From Chroococcidiopsis sp. CCMEE 29 (GTDB lineage: Bacteria; Cyanobacteriota; Cyanobacteriia; Cyanobacteriales; Chroococcidiopsidaceae): 24,000 nucleotides of DNA. Positions 9,902 through 11,404 of the stretch are shown piece after piece. A model generated the notes under the pieces. The model worked only from the letters and a program-made list of their open reading frames with translations, made no database searches and was not told the DNA's origin. The stretch covers positions 64,273 through 88,272 of the forward strand of contig NZ_CP083762.1 of NCBI RefSeq assembly GCF_023558375.1. Reading direction: 5' to 3'. The position numbers were made by a program, and so were the translations under genes. How positions within the stretch are numbered: position 1 is the stretch's first letter; each line of letters begins with the position of its first letter.

Positions 9902-11155
9902 TTAGGGCTGAACTTCGCGTAGCCGACGCTCCAAGAAACGGCGCTCACTCTCATTGGTAACCAGTTCCAGTGCCCGCCTATAGCTCTGGATCGCTTCTTC
10001 TAATGCTCCGACACGCCGGAGTAAGTCAGCACGGGTGGCGTGAAATAGATGATAGCTGTCCAGTTCTGGGGCAAGGCGATCAATTAGTCCAAATGCCGCT
10101 TGAGGACTATCTGCCATCGCGATCGCCACCGCTCGATTCAAGGTCACAATGGGTGAAGGCTGTAAGCGTTCCAACACCTCATAGAGTCGCACGATTTGCG
10201 CCCAGTCTGTTTCTTCGGCGCGTGTTGCCTGACAGTGAAGGGCTGCGATCGCCGCTTGCAGAGCATACACTCCTGTTCCACCACGCAACGCTTCTTCCAC
10301 CAGGGGCAACGCTTCAACAATTTGTGGGTAGTTCCAACGGCTCCGATCCTGATCTTCCAGCAGAATCAGATCGCCCGCTTCATCTAAACGAGCATCTCGC
10401 CTCGAATCATGAAGTAACATCAATGCCACCAGTGCTGTGACTTCAGACGGAGATTGGGGTGCCATCAATTGCCTCACCAGTTGCCCCAGTCGAATCGCTT
10501 CAGTACAGAGGTCAGCCCGCACGATCAAATCTCCTTTGGTCGCCGCATAGCCTTCATTGAAGATGAGATAGATTACTGTCAGGACTGCCTCTATCCGAGG
10601 AGTGAGATCGGTTGTTTCTGGCACTTTATAGGGAATGCCTGCGTCTCGAATTTTGCGTTTAGCGCGAACCAGGCGTTGCGCCATCGTTGCCGGAGGAACC
10701 AGAAATGCGCGGGCAATTTCGTCGGTTTCCAGTCCTCCTAGCATCCTCAGAGTCAACGCGACCTGAGTCTCGATCGCCAGTGCTGGGTGGCAGCAAGTAA
10801 AGATCAGGCGCAGGCGATCGTCTCCAATTTCATCACTGTCGTAGGTTGGTTCTTCGCTCGATGGAATTAACCCCGATCCTGCGTACCATTCCAGCTTTTC
10901 GGTTAGTCGTGTCCGTCGTCGCAAGCGGTCGATCGCTTTGTATCGTGCGGTTCGGATAATCCAGGCACGGGGAAGATCGGGAATACCGCTGGCTTGCCAC
11001 TGATTTACAGCCGCTGCAAATGCCTCTTGTGCGGCTTCTTCAGCCAGATCAAAATCTCCTACCAGCCGAATCAGGATGGCAACAATGCGTCCCCATTCAG
11101 CGTGGTATGTGTCAGCGATCGCCTGAGCAACATCTGATTTTGAGGTTGAAGCCAT
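9902..11155 (-). CDS. ECF sigma factor with long C-terminal TPR-like extension (ECF42-type)
   Basis: Sigma region 2 (AEEAAQEAFAAAVNQW..PRAWIIRTARYKAIDRLRR) and region 4 (LGGLETDEIARAFLVPPATMAQRLVRAKRKIR) are followed by a ~200-aa helical extension. ATG at 11155 is preferred over the ORF-track GTG at 11212, which overlaps promoter repeat 1. Confidence 0.8.
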   Translation of the reverse strand: MASTSKSDVAQAIADTYHAEWGRIVAILIRLVGDFDLAEEAAQEAFAAAVNQWQASGIPDLPRAWIIRTARYKAIDRLRRRTRLTEKLEWYAGSGLIPSSEEPTYDSDEIGDDRLRLIFTCCHPALAIETQVALTLRMLGGLETDEIARAFLVPPATMAQRLVRAKRKIRDAGIPYKVPETTDLTPRIEAVLTVIYLIFNEGYAATKGDLIVRADLCTEAIRLGQLVRQLMAPQSPSEVTALVALMLLHDSRRDARLDEAGDLILLEDQDRSRWNYPQIVEALPLVEEALRGGTGVYALQAAIAALHCQATRAEETDWAQIVRLYEVLERLQPSPIVTLNRAVAIAMADSPQAAFGLIDRLAPELDSYHLFHATRADLLRRVGALEEAIQSYRRALELVTNESERRFLERRLREVQP

Positions 11156-11181
11156 GTCTGTCACAAAAATCTTTAAAGAGG

Positions 11182-11208
11182 TGTCGATTTGAGCAGTTGC
11201 CGTTCGAC
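11182..11208 (+). promoter_or_regulatory. ECF-type promoter-like repeat 1: TGTCGA-N16-TCGAC
   Basis: GGTGTCGATTTGAGCAGTTGCCGTTCGACTCACTTACA (11180-11217). Its core GTCGA-N16-TCGAC is its own reverse complement, so it could also serve the divergent sigma gene 27 nt away. Confidence 0.45.
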
Positions 11209-11276
11209 TCACTTACAAGGGAATATAATAATGAAAATTAAGTACACTTGTACTAAAAATTAAGTTTTTTAAGCGG

Positions 11277-11303
11277 TGTCGATTTGAGCAGTTGCCGTTC
11301 GAC
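11277..11303 (+). promoter_or_regulatory. ECF-type promoter-like repeat 2
   Basis: A 38-nt block (11275-11312) identical to repeat 1, 95 bp downstream. Confidence 0.45.
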
Positions 11304-11357
11304 TCACTTACAGAGGCAAAGCTCGATCGTACCGAATGAAAAAAATTTTTGGTGAGA

Positions 11358-11384
11358 TGTCGATCTGAGCGATTCCCATTCGAC
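11358..11384 (+). promoter_or_regulatory. ECF-type promoter-like repeat 3 (proximal to the DGPF gene)
   Basis: ATGTCGATCTGAGCGATTCCCATTCGACTGAATCACAGAGGCAA. It has the same boxes and 16-nt spacer and ends ~20 nt before ATG 11405. Confidence 0.5.
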
Positions 11385-11404
11385 TGAATCACAGAGGCAA
11401 CCCA

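Follow-up and report, generated by a model that had tools for sequence, protein, structure and literature searches.

Three tandem ECF42-type promoter units probably drive a YCII/DGPF operon in Chroococcidiopsis sp. CCMEE 29

We analyzed a 24,000-nt stretch of DNA from the cyanobacterium Chroococcidiopsis sp. CCMEE 29 (contig NZ_CP083762.1, positions 64,273 to 88,272 of the forward strand). We call this whole stretch the window, and the positions below are those of the window. Between a leftward gene for an ECF42-type sigma factor and a rightward operon that begins with a YCII/DGPF gene, the window contains three direct repeats. As judged from their sequence, these are probably three complete ECF42-type promoters, arranged head to tail, that are read by the divergent sigma factor and that together drive the YCII/DGPF operon. 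ECF42 is among the most widespread groups of extracytoplasmic function (ECF) sigma factors; to our knowledge, neither its signal nor the role of its DGPF targets is known.

The repeats and their ECF42-type motif

A repeat search found one family of three 51-nt direct repeats. They lie in the 249-nt gap between the start codon of the sigma gene (CAT on the plus strand, 11153-11155) and the start codon of the DGPF gene (ATG at 11405). The start-to-start distances are 95 and 81 nt. Copy 2 is 92% identical to copy 1 and copy 3 is 75% identical to it. Each copy has, in order, an A/T block, about 7 nt, TGTCGAT, 14 nt, TTCGACT, and CAC(T)TACA. The units, which we interpret as promoters, and the linkers between them are:

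11167-11217, plus strand: promoter unit 1; A/T block 11167-11179, -35 element TGTCGAT 11182-11188, -10 element TCGACT 11204-11209, predicted start at A 11217; matrix score 24.6 bits, genome rank 2
11218-11261, plus strand: linker A; probable relic mini-ORF (open reading frame; MKIKYTCTKN) at 11231-11263 and, at 11241-11254, a conserved GTAC-N6-GTAC palindrome
11262-11312, plus strand: promoter unit 2; -35 element 11277-11283, -10 element 11299-11304, predicted start at A 11312; core identical to unit 1; matrix score 19.0 bits, genome rank 3
11313-11342, plus strand: linker B; apparent remnant of a duplicated 5' untranslated region (GAGGCAA ... ACCGAATGAAA); probable relic mini-ORF 11336-11368 (MKKIFGEMSI), which extends into unit 3
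11343-11393, plus strand: promoter unit 3 (gene-proximal); -35 element 11358-11364, -10 element 11380-11385, predicted start at A 11393; matrix score 37.2 bits, genome rank 1

The original prediction described three units of 38-45 nt, each with TGTCGA, 16 nt and TCGAC. It stated that the first two are identical over 38 nt and that unit 1 lies 27 nt from the ATG of the sigma gene at 11155. A script reproduced all of its coordinates and counts: 11180-11217 is identical to 11275-11312, and the 27 nt run from the sigma start codon to the T of TGTCGA in unit 1. The repeat is longer than the predicted extents, because it also takes in an upstream A/T block and the region of the start site.

In the 6.39-Mb genome, there are 7 occurrences of TGTCGA-N16-TCGAC and 5 of a reversed-pattern control. 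If up to 2 mismatches are allowed, the 12-base pattern matches the window at 5 places (1.5 expected). Because three of the seven genomic occurrences fall within 203 nt, at the array, and none of 100 shuffles of the window reaches 5 matches, the clustering is beyond chance.

The sigma factor has the hallmarks of ECF42: a core of regions 2 and 4, a C-terminal extension of about 200 amino acids, a linked YCII/DGPF gene, and no anti-sigma domain by Pfam. Sigma70_r2 (residues 23-83) and Sigma70_r4_2 (residues 118-169) both score above the Pfam cut-offs, and the extension matches DUF6596 (residues 187-289, E = 3e-34). Matches to TPR_1 and TPR_2 at residues 371-398 are weak and do not reach the curated cut-offs. 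Orthologues of the sigma factor have a conserved N-terminus. DUF6596 has a single match in the genome, so this is the only DUF6596-bearing sigma factor there. No anti-sigma domain was found by Pfam in ten neighboring open reading frames, although a missing Pfam match is not proof of absence.

The motif also fits ECF42. In Sinorhizobium meliloti, three promoters that depend on RpoE10 (ECF42) were mapped by RNA-seq or 5'-RACE (rapid amplification of cDNA ends), and all three are TGTCGG-N17-CGTC (PMC6180224, Table 1). All three of our units are TGTCGA-N17-CGAC, which is the RpoE10 geometry with one base different in each element. The RpoE10 promoter sequences as listed end nine bases past the -10 element (PMC6180224), and we took this position as the start site. 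By analogy, transcription of the units would start at the A at 11217, 11312, or 11393, nine bases after each -10 element. The predicted start of unit 3 leaves a 12-nt leader that contains GAGG.

The extended motif precedes DGPF genes beside ECF42 sigma genes in every cyanobacterial locus that we examined, and the units are conserved before DGPF genes in dozens of genomes. All of the promoters that we compared have the A/T block, and TGTCGAT and CGACTA are invariant among them. We built a weight matrix from 26 distinct promoters, all of them from a clade with co-directional loci (see below) that shares no recent ancestry with this locus. Among 12.8 million positions in the genome, the matrix ranks the three units first (unit 3, 37.2 bits), second (unit 1, 24.6 bits), and third (unit 2, 19.0 bits). 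The runners-up are a low-complexity repeat at 15.0 bits and then a site at 3.6 bits. Because the units are the top three sites and the next non-repeat site has just 3.6 bits, the sigma factor appears to have a single target locus with three promoters. Neither the exact pattern, nor a relaxed pattern, nor the matrix gave a credible site for another regulon member in the genome. We considered C1:3576278 as a regulon member and rejected it: it is a symmetric, chance-level match whose score is low once the flanks are included.

Overall, the locus resembles the ECF42 systems of S. meliloti (RpoE10) and Streptomyces venezuelae in its sigma2/sigma4 core with a TPR extension of about 200 amino acids, in the lack of a linked anti-sigma gene, in having YCII/DGPF and VOC/glyoxalase-like genes as neighbors and targets, and in the promoter TGTCG(A/G)-N17-CG(A/T)C. 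The S. venezuelae sigma factors SVEN_0747, SVEN_4377, and SVEN_7131 and their DGPF/YCII target promoters were reportedly described by Liu, Pinto and Mascher in 2018. The described systems have, as far as we found, a single promoter per operon; in contrast, three full copies stand head to tail before one operon here. A further difference from the described ECF42 promoters is that the units carry a conserved A/T block on the upstream side and follow a longer consensus, TGTCGAT ... CGACTA. The sigma domains, the RpoE10 geometry, the conservation, and the top three matrix ranks all agree with the original prediction that these are ECF42-type target promoters of the DGPF operon.

The linkers have features of their own. 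Linker B looks like a remnant of a duplicated 5' untranslated region on the basis of repeat pair D3 (ACCGAATGAAA and ACCCAATGAAA). The palindrome of linker A (11241-11254) is AGTACACTTGTACT, and positions 11321-11331 of linker B are GCTCGATCG. Both are kept across six aligned three-unit arrays from different families, which is more than the promoters account for. These sequences might be a site for a regulator or a piece of the sigma gene's promoter. No known RNA family matched 10900-11700 at E up to 1. We also considered RNA structure in the long leader and on the antisense strand, but the z-scores were about -2 and are accounted for by the built-in short palindromes.

Copy number and maintenance of the units

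Of the 401 genomes that were sampled from the order, 30 have ECF42 sigma factors, in two types of loci. In the co-directional type, a promoter lies after the stop codon of the sigma gene and before a DGPF gene, and is followed by a second promoter at a distance of 0.5-1 kb. In the divergent type, the sigma and DGPF genes are back to back, as in this window. The sigma factors of the divergent type form one clade (support 100). In L032-L055, which belong to the co-directional clade, the second promoter (of the TTCGACTA type) lies 0.5-1 kb downstream of the first (of the AACGACTA type), right after the DGPF gene. From this layout, their regulon appears to consist of two single promoters in series and not of an array.

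To count units without relying on the motif, we used 15 genomes of the divergent clade that were found via the sigma protein. Four have three intact units (G000, G189, G382, and G458), ten have two, and one (G009) has a single unit. One of the ten, G434 (from L173), has a third unit that is destroyed. The original prediction had called three stacked promoters unusual, but 2-3 copies are the rule in this lineage (14/15 of the protein-found genomes). It also proposed to compare the number of repeats in orthologous intergenic regions, and this comparison gave 1-3 units in the 15 genomes, with the same motif before the DGPF gene.

More broadly, a scan of public genomes (one genome per species, with two adjacent units required) gave 109 stretches with tandem units. 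We fetched 80 of these, which contain 81 arrays: 75 doubles and 6 triples. The spacings form clusters at 78-85 and 91-98 nt. Almost all of these arrays lie between an ECF42 sigma gene and a gene whose product begins with MKYLLLIYM. One hit (L121), on a contig from a metagenome-assembled genome (MAG) of the Kiritimatiellae, is a false positive: two adjacent tRNA genes match TGTCGAT-N15-TCGACT. The match runs through the anticodon loop and T arm, and such tRNA genes are a source of false positives in searches for ECF42 promoters.

The fetched triples L061, L070, L080, and L126, together with G189 and G458, have the long and then short spacing of this window and align with its array along the whole length. 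Because arrays from several families align in this way, the three-unit layout predates the split of these families. In G382, the third unit was gained separately, by repetition of a 96-nt unit. G009 appears to have lost a unit secondarily, since the flank of its single unit on the sigma side is the same as the inner linker of its two-unit relatives.

Co-directional tandem pairs were found on two MAG contigs outside the cyanobacteria: L115 (Caldilineaceae, Chloroflexota) and L133 (Deltaproteobacteria), with units 82 and 87 nt apart, respectively. Both pairs lie directly past the stop codon of a co-directional ECF42 sigma gene and are followed by a DGPF-like gene. The G+C content of the contigs is 61-63%, and HIP1, the GCGATCGC repeat of cyanobacteria, is absent from them. 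Provided that these contigs are binned correctly, promoter doubling would have arisen independently outside the cyanobacteria. We found nothing relevant in the literature on natural tandem ECF promoters. The tandem ECF42 array is a known module in a conserved variant form for which, as far as we found, there is no prior description.

The -35 and -10 elements are intact in 33 of the 34 units in the protein-found sample, on which our arguments about conservation rest, and in which related genomes are not independent samples. The intergenic regions in this sample are too short to hold decayed copies as well, which means that a unit has either stayed intact or been deleted cleanly. The one exception is G434, where unit 1 lost its spacer by a deletion that fused TGTCGA directly to CGAC. 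The destroyed unit lies about 100 nt upstream of the first intact unit, and the A/T block, linker A, and a full-length sigma open reading frame are still present. In G434, the sigma-proximal unit is thus knocked out naturally. A comparison of G000 with G189 shows 93% identity in the 28-nt cores, 74% in the linkers, and 65% at the third codon positions of the DGPF gene.

Units 1 and 2 evolve in concert. Their spacers are more alike within genomes (0.81 identical) than between genomes (0.68), which indicates that the two units are homogenized by gene conversion. This would explain why they are identical over 38 nt here. The spacer of unit 3 is the most conserved of the three (0.82 identical between genomes), and this unit appears to evolve as a stable orthologue.

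Like the DGPF gene, the two mini-ORFs (11231-11263 and 11336-11368) begin with ATGAAA. These 10-codon reading frames are probably left over from a duplication that began at the A/T block, took in the ribosome-binding region, and ended just past the start codon. We considered whether they encode leader peptides and rejected this idea, because G189, L061, and L070 do not conserve their ATGs.

Neighboring genes

The genes on either side of the array are:

9405-9863, minus strand: VOC/glyoxalase-family gene (Pfam Glyoxalase, E = 4e-11), 38 nt past the stop codon of the sigma gene
9902-11155, minus strand: ECF42-type sigma gene, 417 amino acids from the ATG at 11155 (Pfam Sigma70_r2, Sigma70_r4_2, DUF6596, and a weak TPR)
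11405-11764, plus strand: YCII/DGPF gene, the first gene of the putative target operon, 119 amino acids, MKYLLLIYMDE... (Pfam YCII, E = 1e-21)
11761-14646, plus strand: the rest of the rightward operon, from Pfam matches, with the following genes
11761-11964 and 11961-12296, plus strand: PhnB-like gene in two frames
12384-12812, plus strand: second YCII gene
12897-13307, plus strand: VOC/PhnB-like gene
13335-14063, plus strand: DUF899 gene
14131-14646, plus strand: DUF1579 gene

The VOC/glyoxalase gene is probably in the same leftward operon as the sigma gene. The same YCII/DGPF gene comes after the arrays in relatives. We did not find a further promoter motif within the rightward operon (11761-14646), even with 2 mismatches allowed. 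The two frames of the PhnB-like gene (3-dmu-9_3-mt family) overlap and together cover profile positions 2-44 and 47-116, so the split in 11761-12296 appears to be a frameshift or a sequencing error. An intact paralogue of the split gene is present at 12897-13307.

The window sits on a 673-kb second replicon, among insertion sequence (IS) elements. An open reading frame similar to IS1 InsA, with a zinc ribbon and a helix-turn-helix, lies just downstream of the sigma-VOC pair (8866-9375), which fits with surroundings that are rich in mobile elements. The sigma factor is 91-92% identical to those of L170 (G579), L171 (G458), and L015-L019 (another family, another order), versus 83-86% identity within its own family. 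Because the identity is higher across families than within the family, and because the locus is on a second replicon among IS elements, we suggest that the whole module is horizontally mobile.

How the array may work

We propose that each unit contains an UP-like A/T block, a -35 element of TGTCGAT, a spacer of 16/17 nt, a -10 element of (T)CGACT, and a start at the A nine bases on. The divergent ECF42-type sigma factor, for which these are the only three sites in the genome with high scores, would read the units, and they would drive the rightward YCII/DGPF-PhnB-VOC-DUF899-DUF1579 operon. We infer that this sigma factor does read the units, that the start sites are as predicted, that all three units fire, and that their outputs add up. 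The array probably originated by tandem duplication of the promoter, the leader, and ATGAAA. It is old, with the same long and short three-unit layout in other cyanobacterial families, and gene conversion keeps units 1 and 2 alike within each genome.

Natural tandem promoters such as the P1-P2 pairs of rRNA operons are well known, and in synthetic biology, engineered tandem copies of core promoters raise expression; the array described here is instead natural and evolutionarily maintained. It resembles the native tandem promoters of E. coli in having at least two co-directional promoters within about 100 bp before one gene (PMC8830795). The E. coli promoters are usually unrelated in sequence and often have different regulators or sigma factors. 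In contrast, the units here are duplicates that seem to be served by one alternative sigma factor and homogenized by gene conversion, and their copy number varies between species. In a model for E. coli, a polymerase in an open complex occupies about 35 bp, and tandem start sites separated by over 35 bp give 1-2 times the output of a single promoter (PMC8830795). The start sites that we predict are 95 and 81 bp apart. Because these distances exceed the footprint of the polymerase, every unit could be occupied at once. The most likely result would be more initiations per active sigma factor on this one operon, between 1 and 3 times as many as from a single promoter. The suggestion in the original prediction that three stacked promoters may tune the dose remains reasonable. 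Reviews also note that the YCII partner may itself help to regulate the sigma factor (PMC8999054), in which case, we speculate, a feedback loop would have its gain determined by the array as well.

Several observations weigh against three active promoters whose outputs add up. Polymerases from the upstream units may interfere with the units downstream, and the gain might then be small. Unit 3 has both the highest score and the most conserved spacer, while the spacers of units 1 and 2 change at close to the neutral rate (0.67-0.68, versus 0.65), so the upstream units may be weaker. G009 has a single unit and G434 has lost unit 1, so the extra copies are dispensable at least sometimes. Also, the pattern for the public scan demands intact motifs, so that scan cannot itself show conservation. 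It could be, then, that only unit 3 works and that units 1 and 2 are neutral leftovers of duplication, which persist by unequal recombination and gene conversion; the range of 1-3 copies, the decay of a unit in G434, and spacers in units 1 and 2 that change nearly as fast as third codon positions would all fit. But in the protein-found genomes, the upstream -35 and -10 elements have stayed intact with a single exception, although neutral divergence is about 35%; several families share the long and short three-unit layout; the intergenic regions have no room for decayed copies; and tandem pairs recur in other phyla. We consider it quite unlikely that unit 3 acts alone. A related idea is that the extra units add little transcription and mainly bind the sigma-holoenzyme, as decoys or a local sink that shapes the response curve, for instance by giving a threshold or ultrasensitivity. 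With what is apparently a single target locus, three sites would change the ratio of sites to sigma threefold, and the cores are conserved. On the other hand, every unit is still a full promoter with an A/T block and a start-site region, which would be superfluous in a pure binding site, and we give the decoy explanation little credence.

The other alternatives arise from the symmetry of the units. The original prediction took the core to be its own reverse complement. This holds for GTCGA/TCGAC but not beyond: the T before GTCGA, the T after it, and the TA after CGAC are invariant in all forward promoters and are not mirrored, and the conserved A/T block is on one side only. Moreover, the sigma-proximal promoters of the co-directional clade have AACGACT, which is asymmetric, as are TGTCGG and CGTC in S. 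meliloti. Because both elements contain TCGA, the symmetry seems to be incidental. The units were nevertheless suggested to be operators for a dimeric repressor, and the five-base inverted arms, repeated three times, do have centers 21 bp apart, or about two helical turns. Given the asymmetric bases and promoters just described, the one-sided A/T block, and the lack of a regulator gene linked to the locus (as judged by Pfam matches of the neighbors), an operator of this kind is highly improbable.

It was also suggested that unit 1 fires both ways. Read on the minus strand (AGTCGAA-N14-ATCGACA), it would drive the sigma-VOC operon and give positive autoregulation, which could coexist with three forward promoters for the DGPF operon. 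The ATG of the sigma gene is 27 nt from unit 1 (15-40 nt in relatives), so the promoter of the sigma gene must overlap the array, and we found no convincing conserved sigma-70-type promoter on the minus strand. A consensus scan for one gave a site inside the sigma open reading frame and a weak site on the plus strand. By eye, TCGACA-N16/17-TAAGAT/TATCAT is a candidate in G017 and G009, but it is not conserved in G000, G189, G014, or G375. The reverse core does keep GTCGA-N17-CGAC and ranks about 70th of the 12.8 million positions. However, the reverse reading, AGTCGAA ... CGACA(C/T), misses 4 of the 13 invariant positions. Its core has 7.8-7.9 bits instead of 21-22.5 bits (13-15 bits lower), and with the flanks it has -4 to -28 bits. 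The co-directional ECF42 loci have no promoter motif upstream of the sigma gene, and in S. meliloti, RpoE10 does not raise expression of its own operon (PMC6180224). Finally, in G434, unit 1 is destroyed on both strands while the sigma open reading frame is intact and units 2-3 are conserved. Bidirectional use of unit 1 is therefore unlikely, and three promoters that all face the DGPF operon remain our preferred explanation.

If so, then the array is a neat variation on a known switch, not a new system. The sharper consensus (A/T block, TGTCGAT, N14, WWCGACTA) should help to find ECF42 regulons in cyanobacteria, and the palindromic look of the ECF42 motif should not be over-read. It is possible, although we put this forward with more doubt than confidence, that head-to-tail arrays with 2-3 identical copies of an ECF42 promoter are a design favored by selection and not a product of drift. 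A sigma factor with a single target would gain output or a sharper response through extra copies of its own promoter. Selection and gene conversion would keep the copies, unequal recombination would change their number, and such arrays would have arisen independently in cyanobacteria, Chloroflexota, and Deltaproteobacteria; the divergent sigma-proximal unit may also feed the sigma gene. With one target locus and a conserved array that varies in copy number, this would be a simple natural system for relating promoter multiplicity to the output of an alternative sigma factor.

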